From positions 78,560 to 142,559 of the forward strand of contig DAOUMA010000008.1 in NCBI GenBank assembly GCA_034414555.1: a stretch of 64,000 nt of DNA. Direction: 5' to 3'. This stretch comes from Dehalococcoidia bacterium. GTDB taxonomy: Bacteria; Chloroflexota; Dehalococcoidia; GIF9; AB-539-J10. The notes below the pieces were generated by a model. It was not told the DNA's origin. It was given only the letters and a program-made list of their open reading frames with translations, and searched no databases. Shown here piece after piece: positions 2,027-46,723 of the stretch; the stretch's first letter is position 1; every line of letters starts with the position of its first letter. The position numbers and the translations under genes were made by a program.

Positions 2027-2033
2027 TTTCCAT

Positions 2034-3120: not shown

Positions 3121-3380
3121 ATTTGGGAAGCAGTGAGATCACAAATAGTTTCGTGACTAACTATAATTTGTCATTTTGCTTTTTTATCGGTGATGTTTAA
3201 TATTGTTCGGAATTTAGTGCTTTGAGTTTAGGATTTACCCGGGGACTGGCCTATTTCATATTCTATAGCAATATTGTCAGCCGGCGAATGGGGGTGTAAA
3301 ATAAATGCAGTACCTGGCGTAGAAGAGCCAGGATGTGCATATGGCTCATTGGCTTGTTGTGCCGGAGCTAAATATAGGAA

Positions 3381-3905: not shown

Positions 3906-3964
3906 ATTACCTTTTATAAGGTTAAGTGGTAGCGTCGTCTGCTGGTCTGCTGTAAGATTCCAGC

Positions 3965-5689
3965 TTACCCGCCCTCTTCGTGGTATATGTACTTGCCGCC
4001 TCGCAGCCATGAGGCAACGCTGGCGACAAGACACACCACAGCGGAGAAGGTCATCACCTCGGTAATGCCGTGGTCAAAAGCCCCGGCGATAAGCTGTGGG
4101 AAGAAGGCTCTGGAGGTTATAGTCGCCACCTGCCCCGCGGACAGGGTATGGAGCACTCCTGAAGGGATCAGCGTTCCCAGCGGGTTATAGCCCAGGAATG
4201 CCGCAAACAGGTATCCTATTGGCGGTATACCGGCCAGCTGTTGTGCGACCTGTGCGGGCACACCCTGTTGGGTAAGGCCGCTGAACATAGCCGCTGGCAC
4301 CGAGGCAGTCATGCCGATGATGAGGAGGGAGAAAAAAATGCCGATGGACAGTGGCATCCCCATGTTATTGAGTGTCGCCCTCATGCCGGAACTTACGCCG
4401 CGATGTCTCGCCGGGACACTGTTCATTATCGCGGCTGTGTTCGGAGCTGCGAACATCCCCATGCAGATGCCATTGAACAGGATTAGTAGCGCGAACAGCA
4501 GATAGGGAAAGTCCACCGGCAAAAATCTCAGCAAGACGAAGCTGGCGGCAGCCAGTATCATCCCGCCGGTAGTGAAATAACGTGCCCCAAAACGGTCAGA
4601 CAGCCAGCCGAAGAGTGGCCCGGCTAGCAGGAACCCCACGCCCATGGGTAACATGTAAATCCCTGCCCAGAGTGGCGTGACCTCAAAATCATATCCATGC
4701 AGCGGCAACCAGATGCCCTGTAGCCAGATGGCAAGCATAAACATCAGCCCGCCCCGTGCTACGGATGCCAGGAACGCGGCTGCATTGCCCGCGGCGAAAG
4801 CGCGGATGCGGAATAAGTTGAGCCGGAACATCGGTGCTCGAACACGCGCTTCGATAAGAATGAACACCGCAAGGAGAACAATTCCGCCGGCAATCATGCC
4901 CACCACGAATGGCGTTGTCCAGCTCATCGGGGAAGTGCCGCTGGGGCCAATGCCATAGGTGATGCCTACCAGTAGCATAATCAGGCCGGCAGCAAAGGTG
5001 AGATTCCCCCCCCAGTCGATAGTCTCTCTTTTCCGAATTCCTATCTCTCGGAGTGAGAGGTATGACCAGATGGTCCCGGCAATGCCTATGGGCACGTTGA
5101 CCAGGAATACCCACCGCCACCCTATCTGGGCTAAAAGCCCACCTGCCAGGATACCTAAGAGAGTGCCGACAATGAAAGCTACCTGGTTCAGCCCGAGGGC
5201 CATGCCGCGCTGATTTTCGGGAAAGGCGTCCGTCAGGATAGCCGCCGAGTTGGCAAACAAAAAAGCACCGCCGATACCCTGCACCAGCCGGAAGAGGATT
5301 AATTCCAGTGCTCCGGCGTCCCCCGTGCTCCAGGCAATAGCACACAACCCGGAGCCGACGGTGAAGATGGCAAAGCCGAGGTTGTACATACGGGTGCGCC
5401 CGAACATGTCTCCCAGACGCCCGAAGGTGACCACGAAGACAGCTACAATTACCATGTAGCCCATGAGCAACCAGAGCAGATAGTTGAAGCTTTCTGGGGC
5501 TAGAGGGTTAATATTGATGCCTCTGAAGATGACCGGCAGTGCCAGCAGTATGCTCGTGCTGCTGAGCGAAACCATAAGCACGCTGAGTGTGGTGTTTGAA
5601 AGGGCGATCCACTTATAACGAGGCCCTACCTGGGGACCGGGAGTGGTTGTCGAGTCTCGTGTCACTTTTCTTAAATCTCCTGCATTCAA
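3965..5689 (-). CDS. MFS transporter, 14-TMS drug:H+ antiporter (EmrB/QacA-like) family
   Basis: 574 aa with many hydrophobic helices. Typical MFS motifs are present (GRLGDMFGR, and LGP..G..L). Confidence 0.75.
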   Translation of the reverse strand: MNAGDLRKVTRDSTTTPGPQVGPRYKWIALSNTTLSVLMVSLSSTSILLALPVIFRGININPLAPESFNYLLWLLMGYMVIVAVFVVTFGRLGDMFGRTRMYNLGFAIFTVGSGLCAIAWSTGDAGALELILFRLVQGIGGAFLFANSAAILTDAFPENQRGMALGLNQVAFIVGTLLGILAGGLLAQIGWRWVFLVNVPIGIAGTIWSYLSLREIGIRKRETIDWGGNLTFAAGLIMLLVGITYGIGPSGTSPMSWTTPFVVGMIAGGIVLLAVFILIEARVRAPMFRLNLFRIRAFAAGNAAAFLASVARGGLMFMLAIWLQGIWLPLHGYDFEVTPLWAGIYMLPMGVGFLLAGPLFGWLSDRFGARYFTTGGMILAAASFVLLRFLPVDFPYLLFALLILFNGICMGMFAAPNTAAIMNSVPARHRGVSSGMRATLNNMGMPLSIGIFFSLLIIGMTASVPAAMFSGLTQQGVPAQVAQQLAGIPPIGYLFAAFLGYNPLGTLIPSGVLHTLSAGQVATITSRAFFPQLIAGAFDHGITEVMTFSAVVCLVASVASWLRGGKYIYHEEGG

Positions 5690-5699
5690 CTGCCTGACA

Positions 5700-6335
5700 T
5701 TATGACACGATTTGAACGCCCCAGACCTTAAGAATTTCCTCGTGGGTTACCACTTCGCACAGGCTTCTTAAGTTCGCCAGCGACCTCTCATGTGCGTCCT
5801 TGTTGGCTGAGGATACCCCATCGCTAACTATCACCACATAATAACCCCGGTTCAATGCCTCTCTGGCAGAGGATTCAACGCCCCACTCCGTAGATATACC
5901 TGTGAAAACCAGTGTTTCTATGCCTCCATACCTGGCGATATAGTCAAAATTCGTGCCTATAAATATGCTGGCCGTATTCTTGTTTAGGACGATGTCTTCC
6001 CGCAAAGGAGCTATCACCTCGGCGATTTCCAGCGCCTTTGGGTCATCACCAAAGGACGAGCGAAGTTGTTTTACATCCTTTATCCCTATTCGTTTCATCT
6101 GCTGGGCTAGCGCCGCCGGCGCCTGGAAGCGGGCAGGCAAAGGGGTTATTTTTGTATAGACCACCGGCACTTGAATCTTTCTCGCTGTCTGAAGCAGCGC
6201 TTCTACTGAGTTGAGAATCTCGTTTTTATTGAATACCCTGTTGACCAGCATATTTTGCATATCCCAAACTATCAGCAGCGAATGCTCTGGAGCTATAATA
6301 TCGGGCAGTTCGGTGTAGAATTTACTTGTCGCCAT
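5700..6335 (-). CDS. Isochorismatase-family (cysteine hydrolase-like) protein
   Basis: 211 aa. LLIVWDMQN...VVYTK...LVFTGISTEWGVESSAREA fits the isochorismatase fold pattern. The usual catalytic Cys is not obvious. Confidence 0.55.
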   Translation of the reverse strand: MATSKFYTELPDIIAPEHSLLIVWDMQNMLVNRVFNKNEILNSVEALLQTARKIQVPVVYTKITPLPARFQAPAALAQQMKRIGIKDVKQLRSSFGDDPKALEIAEVIAPLREDIVLNKNTASIFIGTNFDYIARYGGIETLVFTGISTEWGVESSAREALNRGYYVVIVSDGVSSANKDAHERSLANLRSLCEVVTHEEILKVWGVQIVS

Positions 6336-6842
6336 GAGATTCCTCCTCTTTACTTCATGTTATGCCATATTCCTTACCAATAAAAATCAAGATGCCGAAA
6401 AGAAGACACGCAATGCCTATGAAAATTGACGGGCGTATAAAAATAATTGGTCGCATATTCACCTTCTTCATTTATTAAGGCTGTTTAATTTTCAAAAGCC
6501 TTGTTTTTAGCTTCGTCATGGTTGTCCCGGAAATTTCTCACCCCCGAGCTTTGTAATGCGACCATTCAAGGTCGTGCAGCACGAGGCTAAAGCCTGGCAC
6601 TACATTTTTAAACATCCGCTCATTATATCAATTGAAGCGTGCTTTTGCTATAAATGGTGGCGATATATTAGCGAAGGTAACGGGTTGTGCTGTGGTTGGT
6701 CTGGAAGGAGCCATAGTTGAGGTGGAGGTTGACATATCATCTGGATTGCCTTCGTTTGTCAATGTTGGGACGCAATGTTAACAAGAGTATTCCTTTTGAG
6801 CTGGCTTTGACTGAGTAAACGGATATACCCGCAATCAACTCC

Positions 6843-6950
6843 TGTCGGGGTGGAACTTCCGGTTAATTTCTATTATACCAACGAGGAAGGAGTAAATTTC
6901 AGCAAGCAGCGATAAAATTCCCCAAGCCTGAACAAAATTGACGTTTTGTT
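6843..6950. repeat. Composite scar at the left border of the low-GC operon. It is a remnant of a paralog of the 2034..2780 gene (encodes VELPVNFYYTNEEG...) fused to a copy of the 354-402 repeat
   Basis: 6849-6892 aligns to 2090-2133 with about 6 mismatches. 6901-6950 aligns to 354-402 at about 85%. It reads in frame as a gene fragment ending in a stop. Confidence 0.6.
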
Positions 6951-7039
6951 ACATTACATTCTAGGCTTTTGTAAAATAGGTGGATACATAGAAAGGTTCA
7001 TGACATATTGGAATTGCATTTCATCAGCTAGGACTTTAC

Positions 7040-7702
7040 TCACGCAGGATTCCTAGCAATAAAATCACGCACACCTTGCACCATCAGAGCAACTTGTTCT
7101 TTTGAATATTCATTGTACTTGCCGTGTGCAGCATTGTTACGAAGCCCCAGCCACGCGGTGATACTTTTCTGGTCGAGTTTAGAATAAACGTTAGCGCCAG
7201 CGAGTTCTGCATTCAGACCATCGGCTTTCTTAGGCAGAGACCCCTTAGTCACTGGGATACTATGAGCCTGACATAATTTTCGCAACTGCTCTTCAAGAAC
7301 GCCACCGATTAGAACAGCTGCAGGGTCTTTGTAGCCTTCTGTAAGAAGATAGTCAGCCATCTCCAGAAAATCGCCAAAGATGTCCCCATGGATAATCTCG
7401 TAAACTGATCGTAGGTAACCTGCCTCGTAGTCGGTTCTTAGTGCTTTCAAAATACCGGGAAGGACTATTAAATTGTAAGCCTCATTCTCACCGTATTTCT
7501 TGAGAGCAGCGCGGGCATTCTCTGCATATCGGCTACCACGGGGAGCGAGCCGCTCTATAGCTGCGGCAAGTATCGTAACAAGCTCTGGCACTTCTGTGCC
7601 CAAGTCTGAGCAGTCATCATACTTGGAGCGTGACTTGGCCTTCGCCCATCTCTCAAGTGCTTTGTCGATCTGATTTAGAATAGCCTCTTGATTAATAGAC
7701 AT
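7040..7702 (-). CDS. Hypothetical protein with a C-terminal Rx4H motif (LRNNAAHG), possibly HEPN-like (DUF4145-like)
   Basis: 220 aa. The Rx4H motif lies near the C-terminus. It is the last gene of the nine-gene minus-strand operon, 11 nt after the radical SAM ORF. Confidence 0.45.
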   Translation of the reverse strand: MSINQEAILNQIDKALERWAKAKSRSKYDDCSDLGTEVPELVTILAAAIERLAPRGSRYAENARAALKKYGENEAYNLIVLPGILKALRTDYEAGYLRSVYEIIHGDIFGDFLEMADYLLTEGYKDPAAVLIGGVLEEQLRKLCQAHSIPVTKGSLPKKADGLNAELAGANVYSKLDQKSITAWLGLRNNAAHGKYNEYSKEQVALMVQGVRDFIARNPA

Positions 7703-7713
7703 TGTCTGACCCC

Positions 7714-8481
7714 TTAACGCGGCGCATTATATGAAAAAGCAAGATGATCCTCATACGGCTCCATTGCCTCGCGATGGAAGATAGCTTCCTCCGGCTGTTC
7801 TATTATGTGCTTAAACTCGCCAACATCTTTGCCAAAAGCCTTCTCAAAGAATGGCCTTCTCGGCCCCACCACACCGTGAGTAGCGTGAAGAATGCATTGT
7901 ATACCTCTTAGTTGTCTCTTAGTCCAATTTGGACTGATATATTTCCTATCTTTCGCATCAAGAGGTATGTACCGCATTGGGAAGGAGAAGATACTAAGGC
8001 CTAACTCCTCATTAAGTTCTATATTTATAAGAAGTCTTTTATAAAAGTCTTTCGGGCAATCATCAAAATTGAACAATATGTAATTGGATAGATGCCTGAT
8101 TCCGTACTTATGAGCTAAGCGCACTTTCTCTATATAGAGTTTTTCAAACTTAATGTTGTCAAAAGCTATTCGTAGTGGTTTGAGGGCCAACTGACTGAGA
8201 AGTTCCATCTTACCTTCGTCAAGTAGCCGTGCATCAACACCTTGGTTAAAATCAAGATACCGATAAGCATTCCCAAACCTAGCTCCTTTTTGGAATCCGT
8301 ACTTCTTTATCTCCTCAACTATGCGTGGAAACTCAGCAGAAGCCAAGACATTGTTGTCGAGCAATATGAGGTCTTTCTTGTCAGGATCCAACTGTTGCTC
8401 TAAAGGTATAAAGGGTATAAAGTGCGGCTCTAACCTGTGTACAGCACAGTAAGGGCAGTGGTTTATGCAACCTTTAGTCAT
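7714..8481 (-). CDS. Radical SAM core domain protein; CxxxCxxC (C-INH-C-PY-C) begins at residue 5
   Basis: MTKGCINHCPYCAV. 255 aa. The start ATG overlaps the stop of the upstream B12-binding-domain ORF (ATGA). Confidence 0.75.
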   Translation of the reverse strand: MTKGCINHCPYCAVHRLEPHFIPFIPLEQQLDPDKKDLILLDNNVLASAEFPRIVEEIKKYGFQKGARFGNAYRYLDFNQGVDARLLDEGKMELLSQLALKPLRIAFDNIKFEKLYIEKVRLAHKYGIRHLSNYILFNFDDCPKDFYKRLLINIELNEELGLSIFSFPMRYIPLDAKDRKYISPNWTKRQLRGIQCILHATHGVVGPRRPFFEKAFGKDVGEFKHIIEQPEEAIFHREAMEPYEDHLAFSYNAPR

Positions 8482-8972
8482 ATATCCAATGCTGTGTTGT
8501 TCGTGTAATACTCGTACACATCATTGGTTAGAGCATAGTCAGGTTTCAACCTGTCAACCTCTTCCCAGAGACCAAAGTGTGGAGCTATGCCTGTTTCCCT
8601 TTCAATGTCTGCTTGCAAGAGCGATGCAAGTATGCCTCCAACTTTTATGTTGTCATTCTTAAGCTTGTTACGCTGATAAAATTTAATAGTTTCTATAGTC
8701 CTTTTCCATTGGAAGGTGAACAGAGTGGCTATGTAGATGATGTCCCATCTCTGGTCTCTTATTGCGGCACTGGTTCCTTTGTAGAAAACGACCTCATCAC
8801 CATGCGATTTGTGATAGGTTGAGATTTTCATTAGACCGAGGGGAGGATACTTTACTTTATAGGCTGGCTCTACAAGTAGAACTCTTTTCGGCCTGTTAAT
8901 CAAAATATGTGGGCCTTCTTCAATATTAGGAGCCAGCTTGTACTGCTTAGTTACTGTTATTTCAGTGCTCAC
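8478..8972 (-). CDS. Cobalamin (B12)-binding-like domain, the N-terminal module of a class B radical SAM enzyme encoded as a separate ORF
   Basis: RVLLVEPAYKVKYPPLGLMKISTYHKSHGDEVVFY matches the LLinP..pPLGLlyla..l...Ghev signature of radical-SAM B12-binding domains. 164 aa. ATGA overlaps at both ends. Confidence 0.6.
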   Translation of the reverse strand: MSTEITVTKQYKLAPNIEEGPHILINRPKRVLLVEPAYKVKYPPLGLMKISTYHKSHGDEVVFYKGTSAAIRDQRWDIIYIATLFTFQWKRTIETIKFYQRNKLKNDNIKVGGILASLLQADIERETGIAPHFGLWEEVDRLKPDYALTNDVYEYYTNNTALDI

Positions 8973-10180
8973 GTATTCTCCAAAATCCTCTCCAATTTTA
9001 TTTGATAGTCAGTATTATTCCGGTCAATAGTGTAGTGCAGTGCAGTTGGGTCTGATTGGTAAATATCTTCTAGTAACCCAGCAGCCTTATCATATTCAAG
9101 GAAGAGGCCTTGGCCATCGCGCAAGCTCAGTATATTTGAATAGAGAAGCAATGGCCTTAACAGGCAATAGCCACCGACCCCAGCCAAATGTTTGTAACCT
9201 GGCCAAATAAAGGTCACGAACTTGTCATGCCCAACTTCTTGTGGCAACACCTTTCCATAAGCTTGAGCTACAAATTCAAAGAACCCCGAATCCAAAAGTG
9301 CTTTTATCACGTTTTCTGGGTATTTCTTCTCCATTTCTGCCGCATAGGCTTGTGTTAGCGAGATTAGTTTGAGTCCTACCCTGGTGAACCGCCATGTTCT
9401 AGACCCAGCTGACTCTACAGCCCCCATATCAACCAGCCATTCCAAGCGAGGTATTGTTGTCTGTTCACGTCTAGACCCAGACCCTTGCTCCTCGGCTTTC
9501 TCCTCTATGTTCTTGAGAATCTGTTGCCTGCCCTTTTCAAGAATCTGTAGCTGTTTCTGGTCGGTTAGAGTATACGCGGAGCCAAGGAAGCTATTCCTTA
9601 TATTCTCCATTATGCCAGGAATGAGTGAACCGGCATCAAGGTAATTGAAACTTCCATCTGAAAATCGATTTAGAAGGACATCATAAAAGGGTACTAAGAA
9701 ATCGCCATCCGCAGCTAGCAGGTTGTATAAGAAGAATACTTGCTCTCCACGTTCCAAGACAAGTGGATTTACGGCCGAAGGGTGGTCGAATGCCTCGAGT
9801 TGCTCCTTCGACATCAAACCCTGATATAGAACAAGACCCATGTCGGTTCGTTCATACGAGGCTGTCACCAATCCTAGACCGCGGGGTAAGTATTCCGCAT
9901 ACTCATTGAAGCCAAGTTTAGAGAGCCATCCCGTTTGTGATGGATGACCATAGATATATAGCTTTTGCAGGCTCGTCACATCAGTTCCTTCGCCCAATCC
10001 TTTAAGCCATGTGGCGAGAGCCTCATCCGAAACAGTAAATTTATGCTCTTCAAGCCTTCTGCGCAGTACATCTGACATCTGGTCTGGGGTTCTAGCGAGT
10101 TCGGAAAAAGCCAACACTGCCTTACAAAACCCAAGTCGTTGCATAGAAAGTCTGGAACGACTAATCCATCGAATAGCCAT
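8969..10180 (-). CDS. Hypothetical protein of the operon, 403 aa, no recognisable motif
   Basis: Long ORF packed tightly between the HerA-like gene (2-nt gap) and the B12-domain ORF (4-nt overlap). No motif identifiable by eye. Confidence 0.5.
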   Translation of the reverse strand: MAIRWISRSRLSMQRLGFCKAVLAFSELARTPDQMSDVLRRRLEEHKFTVSDEALATWLKGLGEGTDVTSLQKLYIYGHPSQTGWLSKLGFNEYAEYLPRGLGLVTASYERTDMGLVLYQGLMSKEQLEAFDHPSAVNPLVLERGEQVFFLYNLLAADGDFLVPFYDVLLNRFSDGSFNYLDAGSLIPGIMENIRNSFLGSAYTLTDQKQLQILEKGRQQILKNIEEKAEEQGSGSRREQTTIPRLEWLVDMGAVESAGSRTWRFTRVGLKLISLTQAYAAEMEKKYPENVIKALLDSGFFEFVAQAYGKVLPQEVGHDKFVTFIWPGYKHLAGVGGYCLLRPLLLYSNILSLRDGQGLFLEYDKAAGLLEDIYQSDPTALHYTIDRNNTDYQIKLERILENT

Positions 10181-10182
10181 AT

Positions 10183-11580
10183 CTATGCCTCAAAACCTCC
10201 ATGTGCACTGACTCTTGGGCGGACTTCCATGACAAAACATCTGGGAGTGTTGGTATCAGACACTACAGCTTGACCAACTCCTATGTCTCGTATGAGTTCA
10301 TTTATCGATATATTGACGTTGTTATCCTTGATTTCCGTTGGCAAAGGTGATTTCAAGTTATCTAGAACGTAGTCTATATCAGATTGAGAGACTAATTTGT
10401 GAACGATGAACGTTTCCACTTGAGATAGCACGTTCGGGTCGAGTGCTCTTGGTTGTTGGGTAGTCACTACAAAGGAAAGGCCAAAATTTCTGCCTTCCTT
10501 GACAAACCTTATCAAACTAGCGGTAGCAGAAGTGCGTTTACCGGCCGGGATTACGTTTTGTGCTTCGTCAATAACGACCCAAACCTTGGGTACATAGCGT
10601 TCTACCAGTTCTTTTTTCTCTTTTTTCTGCTGCTCATCTAATTTCGGATTAATAAGAAGATCCTTTGTCATTTCAGAAGCTTCGGCTCTTTCCTGCAATA
10701 GCCTCTTGATAACTACTGAAACAAGTACACCACGCAGATCTTCTGGCAAACCGTTAAGTAGCACTACCGAAGCACGGCCGGCGGTAATCAGGTCACGCAG
10801 TGGCGTTCCGGAACCTGAGAAGATAGGATGCCGGTCATAAGCCCGAAGTTGTTGTAGGACAGCCCTTCTTGTCTCCGCCCGATATACGGATGCCTCATTC
10901 TCCTGGTCCTTCTCTATACATTCAATGAAGTCCCAAATCGTTTGGTCTTTCTTAGCACGATGGTAGTTGCCTTCAGTATCGTACCATCCCAAATCAACCA
11001 CCTTCTGAAATACCTCAGTAAAGTATTGTCCCTTAATATCGCGGACTATATCTAAGTCGAGAAGTGAGCTCCAGTCATCCAATGAGAAGTCTGGTACATT
11101 AAGATACAGGTCCTTGAAAGCTGGCGATGATAGACGATACCGGTAACCGGCAGGAACCCATACGTCAACGTCTAAGGGTACAGCCGGCAATCCCCAAGAA
11201 CGGAGTATATCTGCCTGACTCTTCATTTCCGCGGACTGTTGCTCTGCCGATAGGACTGGAATATTCATCCACTGGAAAATGTTTAGAGTGTCGAATAGAA
11301 GCAAGCCCCTCCGTTTGCTTGTAGCACCAATCGCTGAATTTGACTCAGAGGTACAGAGCGCCTCAATGAGCGAGCCCAAAGTATATGATTTACCCTGTCC
11401 TCGTTTTCCAACAATTGCTATGACCTTCTCTTTCGATACGTCAAATTTGATATTGTAGCGACGTCCATATTCAGCTAGTTTCCCCAAGAAAAGCCATTCT
11501 TTCGGTTCACCGGCCTCTGAGCCTGACGTACACCAATCACCCTGAGCACTCATTTCGGGGTATAGACCATACCTTTTCAT
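10183..11580 (-). CDS. HerA/FtsK-like ATPase (DUF87-type)
   Basis: Walker A IVGKRGQGKSYTL. Walker B VWVVIDEAQNV. C-terminal EGRNFGLSFVVTTQQPRALDPNVLSQVETFIVHKL is typical of HerA/DUF87 ATPases. Confidence 0.8.
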   Translation of the reverse strand: MKRYGLYPEMSAQGDWCTSGSEAGEPKEWLFLGKLAEYGRRYNIKFDVSKEKVIAIVGKRGQGKSYTLGSLIEALCTSESNSAIGATSKRRGLLLFDTLNIFQWMNIPVLSAEQQSAEMKSQADILRSWGLPAVPLDVDVWVPAGYRYRLSSPAFKDLYLNVPDFSLDDWSSLLDLDIVRDIKGQYFTEVFQKVVDLGWYDTEGNYHRAKKDQTIWDFIECIEKDQENEASVYRAETRRAVLQQLRAYDRHPIFSGSGTPLRDLITAGRASVVLLNGLPEDLRGVLVSVVIKRLLQERAEASEMTKDLLINPKLDEQQKKEKKELVERYVPKVWVVIDEAQNVIPAGKRTSATASLIRFVKEGRNFGLSFVVTTQQPRALDPNVLSQVETFIVHKLVSQSDIDYVLDNLKSPLPTEIKDNNVNISINELIRDIGVGQAVVSDTNTPRCFVMEVRPRVSAHGGFEA

Positions 11581-11595
11581 GGATTTAATCTCCTG

Positions 11596-12831
11596 CTAAA
11601 TACGTGGCATAGCTGAATCTAGAAGAGTCTTATCCGCTATCACATATTGATTACTTGCTTTTCCTTGGTGATAAGCAGCAGCCGCAACTTGTGCTAGCGC
11701 ATTTATTATCATGCGGGCATTTCTCGTCTGTTCGTTTTGAAATAGTATTTCCACCGCTCTATCAAGAGCATCTTCCGTGAATGGTAGACTCTGCCAGGTA
11801 ACTTTGCCAGCCAAGCCGACCTCGTTAATAAACTCCTTAGCTCTTTCTTCATCCTTTATATTTTGCATCAAATTGCTCATGAAGGCTCGCATGTCGTTTT
11901 TCGTATTGATAAGCCGAATTAAGTTGATAAACGCTTCGTCCACATTCTGTCGGGTTACGCCTAATCGAGACAGAATGTCATCGGCTGGCTGGATAATGGC
12001 TTTGGGAATAAACTGTTGTCCGGTTCCGAAATAGGCAATTACGAATCCAACATCCTGGTTATAGTCTGAGGCAAGTTGCAGAAAGGCATGATGTATCTCT
12101 ATCAATCTCTTGTCGACATTGTTGAGATCTTGTGCTTCGTCCATGAGAAAGACAATGGCCTTGCCTTGAGTCTTCCGGACCAAGTTACCCAGATTTAATG
12201 TGACATTAACCATATCTTCGGCGTTTTCCAACGCCTTTGTGGCAGCTAGGTCTTGAGCTTGGGCGCCCTTTTCCAGTTTGGAACCCCTAAGCCACTGCCA
12301 GGCTGGTAGAGTCGACCGTGTTTCCCTCAAAAAATACCCGGAAAGAACGTTAGCAAGAGACCTTTTCAGATTTTCATCTCCAAACTTGAATAGCTTTTTC
12401 ATCTCGTTGGATAAATCAGCGGTTTTGTCCTCAGAAGAACGGTTAAATTCTTGAACAATTAGCCTGAGGAAGGCTTCGCCCATCGAATCTAACATCTTGC
12501 CATGAATATACTTCCAGCCGCCAAGATCGGGTATACGCTCATCATATGGCGCAAGCCCGAGGAAGAAACATTTTGCAGGGTAATTCCCTGGCTTTTTGTC
12601 AAACAAATACTTGATATGATACAGCGTGTGAGTCTTTCCATCGCCGAATCTTCCGATAACTCCACATTTTGGGACGCCTCTTATATCGAAGTCACTCCTA
12701 ATCCGAGCCAATAGCTCGTCACTTACCTGCTTGTTGCCAAAGAACCATTCAGCATCTGCCTCTGGGTTTACCCTGAAGCGAGGGCGATTCAGGCAACAGT
12801 AGTCCTTAAGCTCCATATCTTTGATATCCAT
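11596..12831 (-). CDS. P-loop NTPase, paralog C of a tandem trio
   Basis: Walker A GRFGDGKTH at about residue 60. Walker B IVFLMDEAQ at about residue 218. Same architecture as 13383..14573 and 14580..15776. Confidence 0.7.
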   Translation of the reverse strand: MDIKDMELKDYCCLNRPRFRVNPEADAEWFFGNKQVSDELLARIRSDFDIRGVPKCGVIGRFGDGKTHTLYHIKYLFDKKPGNYPAKCFFLGLAPYDERIPDLGGWKYIHGKMLDSMGEAFLRLIVQEFNRSSEDKTADLSNEMKKLFKFGDENLKRSLANVLSGYFLRETRSTLPAWQWLRGSKLEKGAQAQDLAATKALENAEDMVNVTLNLGNLVRKTQGKAIVFLMDEAQDLNNVDKRLIEIHHAFLQLASDYNQDVGFVIAYFGTGQQFIPKAIIQPADDILSRLGVTRQNVDEAFINLIRLINTKNDMRAFMSNLMQNIKDEERAKEFINEVGLAGKVTWQSLPFTEDALDRAVEILFQNEQTRNARMIINALAQVAAAAYHQGKASNQYVIADKTLLDSAMPRI

Positions 12832-12867
12832 TTTCGCCTCCTTTTGCTGAGTTCCAATAAACTAAAG

Positions 12868-13386
12868 CTAGCCAAACAGATTCACTTTAGTGACCTGTTT
12901 GAGTTCTGTTCCCGCTCTATTCGGGATGTCTTCTTTACCTAATACTTCGAGTTCTTCAACTATAGCACAACCTGCTCCCTTCCCCTCCACGAGTAGCCCA
13001 ACCTCAAGAGCTCTAGTCGCTCTCCCCGAGAGGTTGGCAGAGCTTAGTAGTGCAAACCCGAATGGCTCGCAACGACAAACGTATATCTTCGCATGCAAGT
13101 CATTGTTGTAGTATAGCGTCACAAATGGGCTTCCTCTGAAAAGCTTAGCTGCTTCCGTGTTCAGTTGTTCTCTCTCGGGACTGCGCATGATAATTGTCGT
13201 TGGCACCTTTTCCCTTCTTATGACATATAGAATAGCCTCCAATGAGAAGGGCTCTCCGTCAAGACCCAATATCCATGGAGATACTATTACTAGGCTCGTA
13301 ATTCCTGTAGCTTGCATGAATCGCTCAAAGAACAAAGTGTGTCCTCCCTCACGAACAATGGTGACAAATCTCTCTTCCCATCTCAT
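12868..13386 (-). CDS. Phospholipase D-family (single HKD) nuclease-like protein (Nuc/BfiI-like)
   Basis: YNNDLHAKIYVCRCEPFGFALLSSANLS has HxK followed by S-x-N. 172 aa is consistent with a one-HKD dimeric nuclease. Confidence 0.6.
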   Translation of the reverse strand: MRWEERFVTIVREGGHTLFFERFMQATGITSLVIVSPWILGLDGEPFSLEAILYVIRREKVPTTIIMRSPEREQLNTEAAKLFRGSPFVTLYYNNDLHAKIYVCRCEPFGFALLSSANLSGRATRALEVGLLVEGKGAGCAIVEELEVLGKEDIPNRAGTELKQVTKVNLFG

Positions 13387-14573
13387 ATCTCTAGCAGACC
13401 TGCTGCGTGCTCAAGTGTTAGCTCCTTGTTTTCTTGGCAAACGTCTAGGCTAACTACCAAGGCTCTGATAAAATCTCTAGGAGTGCTGGCTGAAGCTGAC
13501 ACGCATCTTCGCACGAATAGCCTTATTGAGGATTTACCAAAATCATTACGCCCCCAACCGTAAGCCTTAAAATGCAAGTCTCGAACCCCTTCAGCAAGCT
13601 CAGTTAATTCCTTGCTTCCTAACTGGTATAGCTCTGTAAAATTTCCCAGGGCTTTATCAAATCCATATGGCATACTCTTAAAGAAAGCTGGGGTAGTCGC
13701 ATATACAAAGTACGAGTATGGTGTACTACGAGCGGCGGTAGCCAGGCTGTATAGATTCTTATATGCCTCTTCTCTCCTTACTGCGCTGGGAAGTGAAGGT
13801 ATAGCGTCTGCCTCATCCAGCAATGTTACAAGCCCTTTTAAACCCATAAACCTGAGCATTTTTGTCAGATTGCCGAGCATTTTGAGTGCGTTCTCTGGGG
13901 AAACATTAGTACTCATACCGATACGCTTGGCATCAGTCATCGTGGTTTCACCTTGGAGCCAGCGAAGAGCTGTGTCTACCTTCCGTGGCCTAGCAAAATG
14001 AACACCTTCAAAGTACTGTGTCAGCGCGTTCTTGACATTTGCATCTAAGTCAGTGAGTATCCAAGGAGCAAGACTATGTCTCGTCACATACTCCTTGACT
14101 TCTAGTGCCCAGTTCTCCAGAACATCTTCCAGAGCCGGCCTATCTGCACAACCGGCCGTCCTGAGGCCCTTGATCACATGGCGATACACGCTCTGAAGAT
14201 TATCCATAGGGCATTCCCTAGAGGAAAGTGTTAGAAAACTGCTTGCAAATTCCTCTATATGTGCATACTCCTGAAGAACCCTTAGCGTAAAGGACTTACC
14301 CATACCAAATATTCCGTCTATGACCCGCAAGCAGGAACTGCCATTAGCTACAAGTGTTAAGTCCTGTTTCATGGAATCAAACAAGTCTTCCCGCCCAACT
14401 GCCAAGACAAGAGCACCCTGGGTAGGCGCTGTTCCTTGGCGACATGATTCCACCAAGGTCAAGGCCATCTCCTTGGATACGTCCCTGACAGATGGTAGCT
14501 TGGGGCGTCTTCGAGCCCTCTGAAGCAGTGCTCTAAGTTTCGGGTCATCTCCAATAGTACCCATTTTCGTCAC
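13383..14573 (-). CDS. P-loop NTPase, paralog B
   Basis: Walker A GIFGMGKSF. Walker B LVTLLDEAD. 396 aa. 4-nt ATGA overlap with the PLD gene. Confidence 0.7.
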   Translation of the reverse strand: MTKMGTIGDDPKLRALLQRARRRPKLPSVRDVSKEMALTLVESCRQGTAPTQGALVLAVGREDLFDSMKQDLTLVANGSSCLRVIDGIFGMGKSFTLRVLQEYAHIEEFASSFLTLSSRECPMDNLQSVYRHVIKGLRTAGCADRPALEDVLENWALEVKEYVTRHSLAPWILTDLDANVKNALTQYFEGVHFARPRKVDTALRWLQGETTMTDAKRIGMSTNVSPENALKMLGNLTKMLRFMGLKGLVTLLDEADAIPSLPSAVRREEAYKNLYSLATAARSTPYSYFVYATTPAFFKSMPYGFDKALGNFTELYQLGSKELTELAEGVRDLHFKAYGWGRNDFGKSSIRLFVRRCVSASASTPRDFIRALVVSLDVCQENKELTLEHAAGLLEI

Positions 14574-14579
14574 GTCTTG

Positions 14580-15776
14580 CTAGTCTTCATGCTCAAATTC
14601 AAGTTTCTCTATTAGATCGTCCAGCATAGCGTTTTCACGCTTCTCTTCTGTAACATCCAGAACGCCTATTAGACCCTTTATGAAAGACCTAATCATGCGC
14701 GGGTCACTAGTTTCAAGAAAGGCAGATACGTACTTGCTAATTGCTCTTGGGTTGAAATAGTCTCCGGCATTCCATTCATATGCCTTGGAGTGTGTGTCAA
14801 CAATGCGAGGTGCTAGCTCCTCCAAAGTGGATTGGTCGAAGGGTGGCAAAGCCATAATTATTGACCTAGCACTTGACTGTTGTAGTCCTCCTCCTATAAC
14901 ATCTTTGATTCTACTCCATAGTGCTGGATATGATCGGGCTCCATTATCAGGGTCTGAGAGGAACTTTGGTGTAGTAGCAAAGAAAACGTAAAAACCTCGA
15001 TGTTCGTCAGGGTTATCCAGCAGTTTACGTATATTCTGGTTTGCTTCTTCACGTTTACGGGATTGAGTCAGTGACGTAATAGCCTCAGCCTCGTCTAAGA
15101 GTACAACAAGGCCAGCATAACCACAAGCCCGCACAAATCGCAAGAAAGAGCCAAGTATCTCACTTACATTCATTATAGTAACGTTAGAGCGTATTCCTTT
15201 TGATTTAAGTTCAGACATTACCTGGTATCCTTGTAGCCAAGCTAATATTCCCTGCATCCGAATTCGATGATCCGGAGAGTCTGTATTAGCGTATTCTAAG
15301 CATGCACGTAAGGCTGCTCTAAAATCCAACGAAGGCGCAATTTGACGTAGATTCGCCTCGACTTCTTGCGAAGAATGGTAAGGAAATCGCCTTGCCCAAT
15401 CCTCAAACATGTGTTCAATACCCTGTCCATCGGGTAAGGTTACGCCACGCATTATCTTCGGGAATATCACTTCAAACCTATCAAACGGAGCTTCTCTTGA
15501 ATTGAGTTCTACATATGACAACAAGAAATTCGCAGACAGGGCTTTTTCCTTGACTTGCATGAAGAAATGTGTCTTACCGCCGCCATAGGGTGCAGACAAG
15601 AAGCGGATTTTGCAGCCACCTTGCCCTATATAAGCTAGATCTCGAGATATAGATGCCAACCATTGCTCACGGCCGACCGAGTACAGCTCCAAGTGTCGTG
15701 CTGGCACAGTCCCTTGCCGAAATGATTCTATAATCGCTTCTGCATCAAACCGACCTAGCTCCCCCGTGCTACTCAT
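14580..15776 (-). CDS. P-loop NTPase, paralog A; first gene of the operon
   Basis: Walker A YGGGKTHF. Walker B LVVLLDEAE. 398 aa. The three paralogs share a long (about 160 aa) Walker A-to-B spacing. Confidence 0.7.
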   Translation of the reverse strand: MSSTGELGRFDAEAIIESFRQGTVPARHLELYSVGREQWLASISRDLAYIGQGGCKIRFLSAPYGGGKTHFFMQVKEKALSANFLLSYVELNSREAPFDRFEVIFPKIMRGVTLPDGQGIEHMFEDWARRFPYHSSQEVEANLRQIAPSLDFRAALRACLEYANTDSPDHRIRMQGILAWLQGYQVMSELKSKGIRSNVTIMNVSEILGSFLRFVRACGYAGLVVLLDEAEAITSLTQSRKREEANQNIRKLLDNPDEHRGFYVFFATTPKFLSDPDNGARSYPALWSRIKDVIGGGLQQSSARSIIMALPPFDQSTLEELAPRIVDTHSKAYEWNAGDYFNPRAISKYVSAFLETSDPRMIRSFIKGLIGVLDVTEEKRENAMLDDLIEKLEFEHED

Positions 15777-15824
15777 TGTGCCGCCCCGTGACCCATAGTA
15801 TATAACCTCGGACTCAGCGACACA

Positions 15825-15947
15825 ACAAAATGGCGTTTTGTGCAGTAGGACGAGTTACCATATTCAGTTTCATAGCCATTCTCGCGGGTGCTATAATCTC
15901 GATGAAAACGGCGGATTGTTCGGCGCTGTGCCAACTTTGCCGGTGTC
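15825..15947. repeat. Composite repeat at the right border of the operon: ggcgttttgtgcag, motif A (cgcgggTGcTATAATctcgatgaaaa), then motif B (gcgctgtgccaactttgccg)
   Basis: Motif A recurs at 23009-23035 and is related to 455-470. Motif B with its ttgtgcag prefix recurs at 17093-17127. Confidence 0.55.
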
Positions 15948-16071
15948 TACATTTTTCCAGAAATTCATCTACGGCTTGTGCTAATCATAATTCCTCCTCC
16001 TCATCATAACTGCTTAGCAACAGCAAACTTGATTGAAAGGCAGATAAGCTGTGTAACATCCGGAGACGGAG

Positions 16072-17507: not shown

Positions 17508-17595
17508 TTATAATGATCAGGAGTAGCTTGCGGTCTATTGAGCAGTAGCGAAGCTGGTGGGAAGGGGCGTACAATATAATTTGGAGGATAAAGAA

Positions 17596-17796
17596 ATGGC
17601 AAAGGCTAAATACCTTGTGGATGAGAAGGGTAGGAAGAGAGCAGTTCTCCTGGATATCAAGGAATATCAGCGATTCATGCGGCGGCTAGAAGAAATGGAA
17701 GATGCCCTCAGTTTAGATGAAGCAGTTCGCACTGCTCAAAGCTTCAGGGACTATCGTGAAGTCAGGGCTGAATTAAAGCGAGAAGGACGTCTGTGA
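17596..17796 (+). CDS. Type II antitoxin (Phd/YefM- or ParD-like)
   Basis: MAKAKYLVDEKGRKRAVLLDIKEYQRFMRRLEEMEDALSLDEAVR. SD GGAGGA 6 nt upstream of the ATG at 17596 (the ORF track started earlier at 17557). The stop overlaps the toxin start. Confidence 0.7.
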   Translation: MAKAKYLVDEKGRKRAVLLDIKEYQRFMRRLEEMEDALSLDEAVRTAQSFRDYREVRAELKREGRL

Positions 17797-18053
17797 GGTA
17801 TGTTGTTCTCCTGGAAAGTCGAGCCGAGAAGGAGCTTAAATCTCTTCCTCAAGGGGTTTTGAAGCGGGTGGATATTAAGTTGCAAGCTTTGTCGCTCAAT
17901 CCTCGCCCAAGAGGTGTAACAAAACTAAAAGGAAAAGAAAGTGAAGGATGGCGACTTAGAATAGGCGATTATCGGCTCCTTTATCAAATCGATGATAAAG
18001 AGAATGTCGTGCGTATCTATAAAATTAAACACAGACGGGAAGTTTATCGCTGA
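17793..18053 (+). CDS. RelE/ParE-family type II toxin
   Basis: 86 aa. ...GDYRLLYQIDDKENVVRIYKIKHRREVY is typical of RelE/ParE. It overlaps the antitoxin by 4 nt. Confidence 0.8.
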   Translation: MRYVVLLESRAEKELKSLPQGVLKRVDIKLQALSLNPRPRGVTKLKGKESEGWRLRIGDYRLLYQIDDKENVVRIYKIKHRREVYR

Positions 18054-46716: not shown

Positions 46717-46723
46717 TAGCGAG

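Follow-up and report, generated by a model that had tools for sequence, protein, structure and literature searches.

A Conserved Seven-Gene Cassette of BrxD-Like ATPases, a HerA/FtsK Translocase, a PLD Nuclease, and a Radical SAM Enzyme as a Candidate Anti-Invader System

Introduction

Nine closely spaced genes in a Dehalococcoidia contig raise the question of whether they form an undescribed defence or modification system, as a first-pass annotation had proposed, and of how such a system would relate to those already known. We analyzed them within a DNA stretch of 64,000 nucleotides, referred to as the window, and in related loci of other genomes.

Organization of the Locus

All nine co-directional open reading frames (ORFs) were recovered on the minus strand (Table 1). 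The spacings of 6, −4, 36, 15, 2, −4, −4, and 11 nt follow from the coordinates as annotated; the overlaps, however, are not all ATGA, since g6 and g7 overlap by GTGA. A low GC content (37–42%, against 50–57% in neighboring genes) had also been reported but was not reproduced: the operon measures 45.3% and the remaining window 47.4%, with a standard deviation of 1.7% among windows of the same size. The sole lower-GC gene of the cassette is the radical SAM gene (approximately 41.5%). A foreign origin argued from low GC is not supported by these values.

The cassette borders coincide with the limits of nucleotide similarity to relatives. At the g1 end, similarity to relatives in other contexts stops at approximately 15761–15780 (L008) or at 15979 (L016). 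A consensus promoter scan of the upstream region gave no score above those of shuffled sequences, so the promoter was not located.

Table 1. Features of the cassette in the window.
Feature	Position	Strand	Basis or remark
Cassette genes g1–g9	7040..15776	−	nine ORFs, all co-directional
g1, BrxD-family (ORC/Cdc6-type AAA+) ATPase, paralog A	14580..15776	−	PF10923 BrxC_BrxD, PADLOC BrxD
g2, BrxD-family ATPase, paralog B	13383..14573	−	PF10923, 29% identity to g1
g3, small single-HKD PLD-family nuclease, putative effector	12868..13386	−	HxK...SxN signature
g4, third, divergent BrxD-like AAA+ NTPase	11596..12831	−	hhalign against g1/g2 family
g5, HerA/FtsK-type hexameric translocase ATPase	10183..11580	−	DUF87, PADLOC, PDB HerA chains
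g6, multi-winged-helix DNA-recognition protein (403-aa "orphan" of the first-pass annotation)	8969..10180	−	predicted fold
g7+g8, single radical SAM gene, split (ORFs 8478–8972 and 7714–8481)	7714..8972	−	1-nt deletion
g9, HEPN-like (RiboL-PSP-type) 220-aa accessory, clade-specific	7040..7702	−	Rx4H, weak PF18735
Upstream intergenic region, presumed promoter region	15777..16071	−	295-nt gap before g1

Conservation and Distribution

The conserved unit comprises seven genes, encoding two BrxD-like ATPases, the PLD protein, the divergent BrxD paralog, the HerA/FtsK ATPase, the multi-winged-helix (wHTH) protein, and the radical SAM enzyme. This set co-occurs in approximately 60 loci and is a genuine multigene system, as had been suspected. 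The order of g1–g6 is identical in 28 of the 31 true-family loci with enough upstream sequence (29 counting L050), and the radical SAM gene adjoins g1–g6 wherever the available sequence reaches far enough. The arrangement is far beyond chance: dozens of independent contigs share it at protein identities of 32–90%.

Hosts include Chloroflexota/Dehalococcoidia, Syntrophomonadaceae, Planctomycetia, Gemmatimonadota, Tectomicrobia, Hakubella, and a MAG of the Hodarchaeota (an Asgard archaeon). Flanking regions vary among loci, and TA, R-M, IS, or integrase genes are frequent in them. The cassette is rare and horizontally mobile; shortened copies occur in L009/L010, L014, and L069.

ATPases, Nuclease, and Winged-Helix Protein

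The annotated Walker A motifs GGGKTH (g1), GMGKSF (g2), and GDGKTH (g4) were all found, and Walker A and B are kept across 32 g1 and 30 g2 homologs and invariant in 40 homologs of g4. Both g1 and g2 match PF10923 (E = 6.6e-59 and 3.4e-55), and g1 also matches the PADLOC BrxD model (9.9e-45); it is not a BrxD equivalog, however, because it reaches 150 bits against the NCBIfam cutoff of 350. The description of the three NTPases as paralogs holds, given the match between g1 and g2 (29% identity, E = 5e-44) and the hhalign alignment of the g4 family with the g1/g2 (BrxD) family (probability 98.5%, E = 1.8e-15, 307 columns). Weak matches of g4 to the mad8 and nSTAND1 models were also obtained.

The assignment of g5 as a HerA/DUF87-type ATPase was confirmed by PF01935 (1.7e-10), by PADLOC models (mad8, 3.6e-20; HerA models, down to 6e-17; DndH, 3e-8), and by matches to PDB HerA chains and DptH (7es4); its Walker A and B motifs are invariant across 47 homologs. 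Likewise, the single-HKD signature of the PLD nuclease g3 is invariant across 35 homologs (H98, K100, and N118). This protein weakly resembles DrmC (PADLOC 4.4e-5, NCBIfam 8.2e-7), its homolog in L081 matches PLDc_2 and DpdK, and no relative was found among PDB sequences. By their motifs, the enzymes of the cassette all look catalytically competent.

The protein g6, previously held to lack recognizable motifs, is confidently predicted (pLDDT 94) to be a multi-winged-helix DNA-recognition protein. Its predicted tandem winged helices resemble the DNA-recognition domains of type IIS enzymes (FokI) and BrxA, while a Foldseek search against the PDB gave no significant match. The triple-wHTH module of DndG, SspB, and FokI has been assigned a target-recognition or modification-discriminating role (PMC10853773). 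Conservation within g6 peaks at a helix-plus-wing element (residues 221–260), which argues against g6 as a diversifying determinant of sequence specificity. No member of the g6 family was found on the plasmids or viral contigs searched, and its carriers are all uncultured.

The Radical SAM Gene

The first-pass annotation described a cobalamin-type radical SAM enzyme in two ORFs. Both CxxxCxxC and a B12-binding-like domain were indeed found; the two ORFs, however, are one gene split by a 1-nt deletion, in which a C is absent between window positions 8494 and 8493 (AACAACAC[C]AGCATTGG). Within the 90%-identity cluster, all ten other members measure 400–419 aa, nine of them 418–419 aa. The protein combines an N-terminal B12-binding-like Rossmann domain with a radical SAM barrel, and the frameshift falls at the linker between them, with g1–g6 intact. 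The split enzyme may work as a pair of polypeptides whose translation is coupled through the ATGA overlap, with a restart at the conserved Met of GYMTKGC; alternatively, it may be inactive. Under strict R-M logic, loss of a protective mark should be lethal, yet g1–g6 remain intact beside the frameshifted gene. This leaves a functional split enzyme, silent restriction, or a mark without a protective role.

With class B (cobalamin-dependent) radical SAM enzymes and AprD4, sequence identity is only 9–18%. The Pfam B12-binding and Radical_SAM matches of the cassette enzyme lie under the gathering thresholds, its cobalamin binding is putative, and conserved auxiliary-cluster cysteines are absent. 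Its context is DNA-linked, whereas that of class B enzymes and AprD4 is natural-product or RNA/protein modification.

Relative to the core, the gene lies downstream on the same strand in 42 cases and likewise but with DndB in between in four; two copies are convergent, eight divergent upstream, and one upstream on the same strand. Its identity is uncoupled from that of the core, ranging from 26% to 80% where g6 identity is 32–35%, and radical SAM genes are swapped between cores, with variable position and strand. In placement, uncoupled divergence, and lower GC, the gene behaves as M genes do in R-M systems.

Comparison with Known Systems

No named system fits the whole set, as the first-pass annotation had stated: PADLOC, Pfam, and NCBIfam models gave no assignment, and no description of the cassette was found in the searchable literature. 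It does not, however, stand apart from everything known, since it fits the Orc/Cdc6-coupled HerA/FtsK capture systems and parallels BREX-Related Capture (BRC) (PMC10853773, PMC12839542). The cassette belongs to this HerA/FtsK-capture and BREX-related class, and the combination itself appears undescribed.

A HerA/FtsK ATPase together with an Orc/Cdc6 AAA+ protein, a fast-evolving wHTH protein, and a nuclease has been described as an anti-invader capture system (NAR 2024, PMC10853773). Shared features are the HerA/FtsK and ORC/Cdc6-clade AAA+ ATPases, a protein with two to four winged helices of the DndG/SspB/FokI type that evolves fast, an effector nuclease, mobility, and sporadic distribution. 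The published class relies on nucleases of the REase fold, and its Orc/Cdc6 protein carries an inserted, inactive REase (PMC10853773). The cassette instead has a nuclease of the PLD family, three paralogs of the BrxD family, and a radical SAM gene as obligatory neighbor. Neither PLD nor BrxD appears in PMC10853773, in which radical SAM comes up solely in relation to DndC. BRC is characterized by PglZ, DUF6079 (BrxC-like), DUF4007, and GNAT/TGT (NAR 2026, PMC12839542), none of which was detected in the cassette with Pfam, PADLOC, or NCBIfam models. The cassette instead has the PLD nuclease, three BrxD-type proteins, a wHTH protein without a Pfam match, and the radical SAM enzyme, a term with zero occurrences in PMC12839542.

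With Dpd (7-deazaguanine), the cassette shares an overall logic in which a modification module is combined with a restriction module of several ATPases, and its PLD protein weakly resembles DpdK; the window, however, lacks DpdA/B/C, TGT, and the canonical DpdD–K helicase set, and the radical SAM enzyme replaces the modification enzyme. In DndFGH/SspABCD, DndH/DptH resemble g5, the triple-wHTH reader of DndG/SspB is analogous to g6, and SspC is an ORC/Cdc6 AAA+ ATPase that partners a wHTH reader and a modification enzyme (PMC10853773). DndB-family partners also accompany the cassette-type radical SAM enzyme. DndA/C/D/E, SspA/D, and a PAPS-reductase-type enzyme are nevertheless missing from the cassette, its nuclease is a PLD protein, and no sequence-level match of its proteins to DndF/G was found. 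Likenesses to BrxD of BREX type 2 (Pgl), DISARM DrmC, and MADS mad8 concern single domains only; BREX PglZ/PglX/BrxC, DISARM DrmA/B and MTase, and the MADS MTase/kinase genes are absent.

Links to DNA Modification

The proposal that the radical SAM enzyme modifies and the ATPase/nuclease module discriminates gains comparative support from Dpd loci, DndB/DGQHR pairing, and radical SAM swapping. In L081, a sister module of PLD, NTPase, HerA, and wHTH genes lies within a DpdA/DpdB/QueC/Vut locus, and the short contigs L080 and L082 show partial arrangements (orphan-like gene next to DpdB; NTPase–HerA–orphan-like–DpdB). The sister module therefore partners known DNA-modification machinery. It lacks the BrxD pair, which co-occurs with the radical SAM gene, so that placing g1/g2 in a "restriction" half is arbitrary.

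Radical SAM homologs of approximately 74% identity form stand-alone dyads with DndB in L087–L089, and a DndB gene lies between g6 and the radical SAM gene in L037 and L042–L044. DGQHR–radical SAM–GHKL triads occur on plasmids of cultured bacteria, e.g., pNL1. On viral contigs, neighbors include a GHKL ATPase, SNF2, YqaJ, a C5 DNA MTase, and a deoxyribosyltransferase-like protein, and in Marinitoga camini virus 1 a radical SAM homolog adjoins a HerA–NurA pair, a second association with HerA and a nuclease.

Proposed Mechanism and Alternatives

Our main reading, to which we assign a probability of about 0.5, takes the cassette for a modular system against invaders, driven by ATP, with R-M logic and two exchangeable halves, capture by g1–g6 and marking by the radical SAM enzyme. 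The multi-winged-helix g6 would read DNA, by sequence or modification state; g1, g2, and g4 would load onto or scan DNA and license the complex; the g5 hexamer would pump foreign DNA, and g3 would degrade it. The radical SAM enzyme, which some loci pair with a DNA-binding protein of the DndB/DGQHR type and a GHKL ATPase, would mark host DNA by radical chemistry and thereby spare self. Defence function, DNA as radical SAM substrate, unmodified DNA as target, and the individual ATPase roles are what we infer from gene associations; gene content, intact catalytic motifs, strict cross-phylum synteny, radical SAM swapping, and DNA-modification partners of each half were observed. If true, this would be an undescribed restriction–modification-like immune system with swappable radical SAM DNA marking. 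Counting against it are the frameshift beside intact g1–g6, the arbitrary placement of g1/g2, the conserved helix–wing element of g6, the lack of a significant Foldseek match for g6, and the failure to find the g6 family on the plasmids or viral contigs searched, its carriers being all uncultured.

It is unlikely, though worth weighing, that g1–g6 instead intercept invader DNA at entry, segregation, or packaging without an epigenetic mark, as in the capture systems proposed to need no modification partner (PMC10853773). The radical SAM enzyme would then be a separate effector that produces a small molecule or nucleotide analogue with antiviral activity (viperin/AprD4-like dehydration) or damages or modifies invader nucleic acid. 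DndB–radical SAM dyads without a restriction partner and the intact g1–g6 beside the frameshifted gene agree with this, whereas the pairing of the sister module with DpdA/DpdB, proven DNA-modification machinery, does not. Against a separate effector, the recurrent radical SAM partners (DndB/DGQHR, GHKL ATPase, SNF2, C5 MTase) bind or act on DNA, and an N-terminal B12-like domain is not known from prokaryotic viperins.

That the radical SAM mark is no self label appears quite improbable. In this case, g1–g6 would attack DNA carrying a foreign modification (type IV-like), for which the invariant helix–wing element of g6 could read a constant chemical feature, or the enzyme would shield the DNA of a mobile element against restriction by other hosts and would only be carried along with the cassette. 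The radical SAM family is approximately tenfold larger than the g6 family (973 against 89 matches) and often occurs on viral contigs and conjugative plasmids, elements that typically protect themselves by DNA hypermodification and on which the g6 family was not found. However, the gene lies next to g1–g6 near-universally in the family, across five radical SAM subtypes and four placements, which indicates functional coupling and not hitch-hiking. Highly improbable, in our estimate, is the lack of any immune role, with the cassette serving a mobile element in DNA processing, partition, or transfer (HerA/FtsK pump, ORC/Cdc6-like loaders, PLD nickase) or, here, being a decaying, nonfunctional remnant. 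HerA/FtsK and ORC/Cdc6 ATPases also work in conjugation, segregation, and transposition (PMC10853773), and both the shortened copies and the frameshift in the window would be compatible with this. Yet the conserved companions of the cassette include no relaxase, replication, integrase, or coupling gene, the seven-gene unit is self-contained between variable flanks that frequently hold R-M or TA genes, and in the window copy the eight other ORFs are intact and retain the conserved catalytic motifs.

The Accessory Gene g9

The Rx4H motif noted in g9 is present at residues 188–193. The protein matches PF18735 with an E-value of 0.013, and several homologs carry a precomputed match to this family. 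Among cassette loci, g9 occurs only in the closest clade (L001, L008–L010, L016, and L051), and the system is thus not one of nine genes as first proposed. With 2,709 matches, the g9 family is found solitary in unrelated contexts; g9 is a promiscuous accessory outside the conserved unit.

Gene Content and Layout of the Cassette

The nine minus-strand ORFs that the first-pass annotation had joined into one operon were all found at the positions listed in the table, and spacings of 6, -4, 36, 15, 2, -4, -4, and 11 nt follow from these coordinates; the overlap between g6 and g7, described as ATGA, reads GTGA. The operon had further been regarded as a low-GC island. As that annotation had advised, GC content was computed against the surroundings, and the argument falls: the operon has 45.3% GC, compared to 47.4% for the rest of the window, with a standard deviation of 1.7% among windows of the same size. 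Only the radical SAM gene is lower (~41.5% vs. 45–47% for the other cassette genes), which is consistent with a separate origin of that module. The boundary also had to be redrawn, as the conserved unit comprises seven genes, with g9 being clade-specific. A promoter/terminator scan revealed no signal above shuffles, and an Rfam scan returned nothing but a distant tRNA.

Coordinates of the features discussed in the text (L numbers denote fetched homologous loci; empty cells, not given)
Feature	Sequence	Coordinates	Strand
g1, BrxD-family ATPase	window	14580-15776	minus
g2, BrxD-family ATPase	window	13383-14573	minus
g3, PLD nuclease	window	12868-13386	minus
g4, BrxD-like NTPase	window	11596-12831	minus
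g5, HerA/FtsK ATPase	window	10183-11580	minus
g6, multi-winged-helix protein	window	8969-10180	minus
Core, g1-g6	window	8969-15776	minus
Radical SAM gene	window	7714-8972	minus
g7, ORF of radical SAM gene	window	8478-8972	minus
g8, ORF of radical SAM gene	window	7714-8481	minus
Absent C in radical SAM gene	window	between 8494 and 8493	minus
g9, HEPN-like gene	window	7040-7702	minus
Ends of nucleotide similarity	window	~7037 and ~15780	
RelB-like antitoxin/ParE toxin pair	window	17557-18053	
tRNA-Gln	window	43062-43135	
Stretch with the two lowest-GC kilobases	window	43062-49000	
ORFs without Pfam match (examples)	window	46058-46642, 46815-48038	
Degraded cassette copy	L009	7870-13073	
Degraded cassette copy	L010		
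Degraded cassette copy	L014	4990-7022	
g6-like gene with radical SAM	L069	3166-12192	
Very distant g6-like gene with methyltransferase gene	L077	8472-10765	
Very distant g6-like gene with methyltransferase gene	L084	8487-10759	
Dpd-type locus with sister module	L081 (WLWD01000007.1)	1369-11871	
DndB/DGQHR-radical SAM(-GHKL)	L087	8539-11170	
DndB/DGQHR-radical SAM(-GHKL)	L088	7723-11221	
DndB/DGQHR-radical SAM(-GHKL)	L089	7628-11176	
DndB/DGQHR-radical SAM(-GHKL)	L112 (pNL1, NC_009426.1)	118850-122990	
DndB-family partner with HEPN match	L088	7723-9996	
DndB-family partner with HEPN match	L112	12249-14558	
g9-type family	L113	6001-6660	
g9-type family	L115	6001-6663	
Marinitoga camini virus 1 radical SAM locus	L117 (KP836355.1)	4998-8824	

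Conservation, Spread, and Mobility

Co-occurrence of the gene set in other genomes had been proposed as a check, and the set recurs: the order g1-g2-g3-g4-g5-g6 is invariant across 86 fetched loci. Upstream of g6, 31 true-family loci offer 6.3 kb or more of sequence; all five upstream genes are present in 28 of them, or in 29 if L050 is counted, where the second BrxD paralog was merely labelled g1, the remainder being truncated or divergent copies. Only 5 loci, all in MAGs, were found in 185,579 species-representative genomes, so the system is rare. Carriers include Dehalococcoidia/Chloroflexota, Syntrophomonadaceae, Planctomycetia, Gemmatimonadota, Tectomicrobia, Hakubella, and one Hodarchaeota MAG. 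Flanking genes vary by locus and are often toxin–antitoxin pairs, type II restriction-modification genes, IS elements, or integrases. Since nucleotide similarity to relatives in other contexts ends just outside the operon on both sides, the cassette moves as a unit. The seven-gene system is real, conserved, rare, and mobile. Degraded copies, with g4 truncated and g1–g3 missing or with g5 truncated, occur in L009, L010, and L014; evidently, the system is lost as well as gained.

The ATPases and the PLD Nuclease

The BrxD-type proteins g1 and g2 (~400 aa each) are paralogs with 29% identity, and both match PF10923 BrxC_BrxD in Pfam (E ~7e-59 and ~3e-55, respectively). They reach 150 and 131 bits against the NCBIfam BrxD equivalog, for which the cutoff is 350; judged by sequence, g1/g2 and BrxD appear to share a superfamily without being equivalogs. 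No relation between g4 and BrxD proteins was seen by BLAST. In a profile–profile comparison (98.5% probability, E 1.8e-15, 307 columns), g4 proved to be a divergent third BrxD-like paralog, in agreement with the three paralogous NTPases originally proposed. The fourth ATPase, g5, is of the DUF87/HerA-FtsK type, and its structural matches include DptH and HerA proteins associated with defence. All four ATPases retain their Walker A and B motifs (30–47 homologs each). PADLOC additionally reported mad8-like similarity for g5 (3.6e-20) and g4 (1.4e-7).

The small HKD/PLD protein g3 has only weak DrmC/DpdK-type matches; DrmC matches it with E 4e-5 in PADLOC and with 29 bits in NCBIfam (cutoff 133). 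Of the PLD signature HxK(x)4D...GSxN, residues H98, K100, S116, and N118 are invariant in 35 homologs, while the Asp after x4 is not conserved and is replaced by Arg in the window copy. Pfam PLDc_2 was detected only for the g3 homolog of L081, a Dpd-type locus. PDB sequence searches with g3, g4, g6, and BrxD gave nothing useful.

g6 Is Modelled as a Winged-Helix Protein

The description of g6 as a 403-aa orphan without motifs holds insofar as no family match was found in Pfam, PADLOC, or NCBIfam, but its AlphaFold model, built from 61 homologs (pLDDT 94.2, pTM 0.94), is that of a multi-winged-helix protein. Nt.BspD6I ranked first in a Foldseek search against the PDB without reaching significance, which places the resemblance at the level of domain architecture. 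The model thus points to a multi-winged-helix DNA-recognition protein without an enzymatic domain. The best-conserved stretch (residues 221–260) forms a helix followed by a beta-hairpin wing. With g6, the fastest diverging core gene, the cassette has the rapidly evolving 2–4x wHTH protein related to the DndG/SspB/FokI DNA-binding domain that a subset of Orc/Cdc6-coupled HerA/FtsK capture systems possesses. We identified 89 homologs at 33–100% identity in a set of 5.8 billion proteins, and an exhaustive HMM search of 1.84 billion entries yielded 332 cluster representatives at E ≤ 1e-3, of which 50 reach E ≤ 1e-30; no relatives were found among viral contigs and plasmids.

Very distant g6-like proteins of 365 aa are encoded in L077 and L084, and also in L076, L078, L079, L083, and L086. 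Genes of the L077/L084 type overlap by 4 nt with the end of an N6/N4 DNA methyltransferase gene, and the two look like a restriction-modification-like pair whose "R" partner is without a recognisable nuclease domain. In L069, a g6-like gene and a radical SAM gene occur without g1–g5, flanked by two tyrosine recombinase genes; this pair is either a remnant or a stand-alone wHTH–radical SAM dyad.

A Single Radical SAM Gene Is Broken by a Frameshift

The radical SAM enzyme had been read as two ORFs. Taken one after the other, these ORFs, g7 (164 aa) and g8 (255 aa), align with homologs of 371–464 aa that each consist of one ORF, and one C is absent from the window in AACAACAC[C]AGCATTGG compared to the homologous loci L008, L009, and L051. 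They represent one gene broken by a 1-nt deletion. All 10 other members of the 90%-identity cluster are intact (400–419 aa, nine of them 418–419 aa), and the deletion, unique to this genome, was preferred over a natural split. The break falls in the interdomain linker, and the second ORF, which overlaps the first by ATGA, begins anew at the conserved Met of GYMTKGC, so that an enzyme in two pieces is nonetheless conceivable. For the two-module reading discussed below, the main tension is this frameshifted radical SAM gene beside intact g1–g6 in the same genome.

The family invariants are G-C-x3-C-x2-C, a DNN-LA motif, and a G-D motif, and the CxxxCxxC [4Fe-4S] motif and partial TIM barrel of the radical SAM superfamily are present. 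The N-terminal domain contains no conserved cysteines, the CxxxCxxC triad being the only invariant ones. A methylthiotransferase (MiaB/RimO) was ruled out, as this domain lacks the three-Cys auxiliary [4Fe-4S] cluster. Cobalamin-dependent (class B) radical SAM enzymes have a Rossmann domain at the N-terminus that binds B12. Here, PF02310 matches the N-terminal domain below its cutoff (E 5.5e-5 to 2.7e-7), and structural matches include TsrM, MgmA, CysS, TokK, and corrinoid proteins, with AprD4 as the top match; AprD4 has a B12-domain-type fold without cobalamin. Together, the invariant motifs, the absence of N-terminal Cys, and the domain matches give an architecture of a B12-binding-like Rossmann domain, which may bind cobalamin, joined to a radical SAM barrel.

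The Radical SAM Gene as an Exchangeable Module

Wherever a locus extends far enough, a radical SAM gene adjoins the core. It lies directly downstream on the same strand in 42 loci, downstream with a DndB-family gene in between in four (L037, L042–L044), and downstream in convergent orientation in two; in eight loci it is upstream and divergent, and in one upstream on the same strand. Its divergence is decoupled from that of the core as well: loci whose g6 is 32–35% identical to that of the window carry radical SAMs with 26%, 49%, or 76–80% identity. The radical SAM is therefore a separate exchangeable module. Its family (973 hits, >120 clusters at ≥ 73% identity) is ~10 times the size of the g6 family, and none of the three homologs sampled on long contigs belongs to a g1–g6 core; each directly follows the gene of a DndB-family (PF14072) protein of 453–767 aa.

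In L044, DndB–radical SAM and a GHKL (HATPase_c_3) ATPase lie between g6 and the cassette end, and the same DGQHR–radical SAM–GHKL set occurs on plasmids of cultured Alphaproteobacteria and on IMG/VR contigs. Plasmid pNL1 of Novosphingobium aromaticivorans DSM 12444 encodes, in this order, PIN-like, GHKL, DGQHR, radical SAM, and GHKL proteins, followed by a DGQHR–HEPN fusion on the opposite strand. As two- or three-gene cassettes, DndB/DGQHR, the B12-domain radical SAM, and optionally the GHKL ATPase are found on their own in genomes, conjugative plasmids, and viral contigs (L087–L089, L112), and may form a stand-alone DNA-modification module; we found no description of the DGQHR–radical SAM dyad in the literature searched. 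Further neighbours on viral contigs are an SNF2 helicase, a YqaJ recombinase, a C5 DNA methylase, and a deoxyribosyltransferase-like protein. In the cultured temperate Marinitoga camini virus 1, a radical SAM homolog (37% identity) is convergent to a HerA helicase and NurA-like exonuclease pair.

The HEPN-Like Gene g9

The HEPN-motif protein, which had been counted as an operon member, does carry an Rx4H motif (R188-x4-H193, invariant in 5 cassette-linked homologs). HEPN proteins have an Rx4-6H motif in a four-helix fold. PF18735 matches g9 marginally (E 0.013) and is precomputed for several of its 2,709 relatives. The gene accompanies the cassette in the closest clade only. Being clade-specific and solitary elsewhere, it was ruled out as a core component; rather than defining the system, it is accessory to it or hitch-hikes. 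The g9-type 220-aa family (sites in L113 and L115) is solitary between ffh and rpsP in one genome, and in another it belongs to an unrelated mobile island that also has HEPN_Cthe2314, Barstar, DUF4062, and a serine recombinase. DndB-family partners of ~760 aa have a weak C-terminal Swt1-like HEPN match in L088 (E 8e-3) and L112 (E 8e-4); with the separate HEPN-like gene after the radical SAM in the window clade, this may be a recurring radical SAM–HEPN theme. BLASTP revealed no similarity between g9 and the C-terminal HEPN part of the DndB partner, and kinship of the two was rejected.

A Sister Module in Dpd Loci

Distant g6 relatives led to L080–L082. In L081, a PLD–NTPase–HerA–wHTH block homologous to g3–g6 lies amid DpdB, DpdA, a DpdB/QueC fusion, a Vut_1 transporter, and a further DpdB (PADLOC: DpdA 3.6e-155, DpdB ~1e-110). 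The block comes with neither a BrxD pair nor a radical SAM, and it takes the place of DpdD-K as the restriction part of this Dpd-type locus. Dpd is proven DNA-modification machinery. Because the block sits in a Dpd locus, one restriction-type module also partners proven DNA modification. Hence a single effector module serves at least two modification chemistries that are unrelated to each other (Dpd and radical SAM), which is direct evidence of plug-and-play evolution of restriction-modification-like immunity.

Comparison with Known Systems

Membership in BREX, DISARM, MADS, Shango, Dnd, and Dpd was rejected, as only single-domain matches were obtained. For BREX, no PglZ was detected in the nine proteins by Pfam, PADLOC, or NCBIfam, nor in the conserved cassette of relatives, and there is neither a PglX/BrxX methyltransferase nor the PAPS reductase of type 4, nor an ATPase of BrxC/PglY length; BrxD-family ATPases are accessory in BREX types 2 and 6. 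DISARM is defined by the DrmA helicase, DrmB (DUF1998), and a methyltransferase, which the cassette lacks, and the DrmC-like PLD similarity is weak. MADS requires mad6, mad7, and mad8 together with N6-methyltransferase, specificity, and kinase genes (bioRxiv 10.1101/2023.03.30.534895), whereas the cassette has mad8-like similarity only and neither a methyltransferase nor a kinase. The defining features of Dnd/Ssp are absent from the cassette, as are DpdA (a TGT-family transglycosylase) and DpdB of Dpd.

BREX-Related Capture (BRC) systems combine a universal HerA/FtsK translocase with PglZ, DUF6079 (BrxC-like), DUF4007 (BrxA-like), and, in a subset, GNAT and/or TGT (PMC12839542). The HerA/FtsK translocase is common to both (g5, DUF87/HerA), but the other BRC components are absent from the cassette, and TGT (DpdA) occurs only in the sister loci L080–L082. 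The BrxD family has been classed as ORC-Cdc6 AAA+ (PMC12839542), and the combination of HerA and Orc/Cdc6 AAA+ that marks Orc/Cdc6-coupled HerA/FtsK capture systems is present in g5 and g1/g2/g4. These capture systems have an active REase-fold nuclease and an inactive REase inserted in the Orc/Cdc6 protein; profile searches detected neither here, and a PLD/HKD protein is found instead. Apart from its PLD nuclease, the cassette fits their general definition. PMC10853773 never mentions PLD or BrxD and names radical SAM only in relation to DndC, and PMC12839542 never mentions radical SAM. No description of the cassette or its gene combination was found in the literature searched, and the view that no named system applies is upheld: no PADLOC 2.0, Pfam, or NCBIfam model covers the set. 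By its sequence relationships, the cassette is best classed as a composition not previously described within a HerA/FtsK-capture and BREX-related, restriction-modification-like family.

A Candidate Two-Module Immune System

The core idea of the first-pass annotation, a modification paired with a discriminating ATPase/nuclease module, survives in the light of the comparative evidence. From gene content, motif integrity, synteny, modular exchange, and partner associations, which are observed, we infer all functions, and the most economical reading would be a two-module system resembling restriction-modification. The radical SAM, in some loci recruited to DNA by a DndB/ParB-like partner, would mark self DNA; g6 would read DNA, the three ORC/Cdc6-type BrxD ATPases would load or license the complex, HerA would translocate DNA, and the PLD nuclease would cut it. 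This arrangement fits two frameworks that comparative genomics has put forward, "sensing-modifying-restricting" and "HerA/FtsK capture" (PMC10853773, PMC12839542). The distinctive feature of the system is the swappable B12-domain radical SAM, which probably acts on DNA.

We tentatively propose, with a probability of roughly 0.3, that the radical SAM installs a new radical-chemistry DNA mark, e.g., methylation or substitution at an unactivated carbon of base or sugar, as the "M" of an immunity with the HerA/BrxD/PLD/wHTH "R", and that DGQHR(DndB)–radical SAM(–GHKL) of plasmids and phages is its stand-alone epigenetic or anti-restriction form. To our knowledge, all well-understood DNA self-marking systems use polar chemistry, i.e., SAM methyltransferases, phosphorothioation, and transglycosylation with 7-deazaguanines. 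If the proposal is true, a radical SAM acting on genomic DNA as an immune self label would be a new chemical class of DNA modification, and ~1,000 unannotated "radical SAM protein" genes beside DGQHR/DndB on plasmids and phages would gain a function. The role of BrxD-type ATPases, which is poorly understood, becomes testable. Should the radical SAM prove to act on something other than DNA, the seven genes would still make up a well-defined candidate defence system, one that PADLOC 2.0, Pfam, and NCBIfam lack and that spans domains of life.

Further Features of the Window

A RelB-like antitoxin/ParE toxin pair lies ~1.8 kb upstream of the cassette, past an EamA transporter gene. A tRNA-Gln precedes a stretch in which the window's two lowest-GC kilobases (~38%) lie, and whose ORFs are mostly without a Pfam match, save for a zinc-ribbon protein and a metallophosphoesterase; this stretch may be another integrated element.
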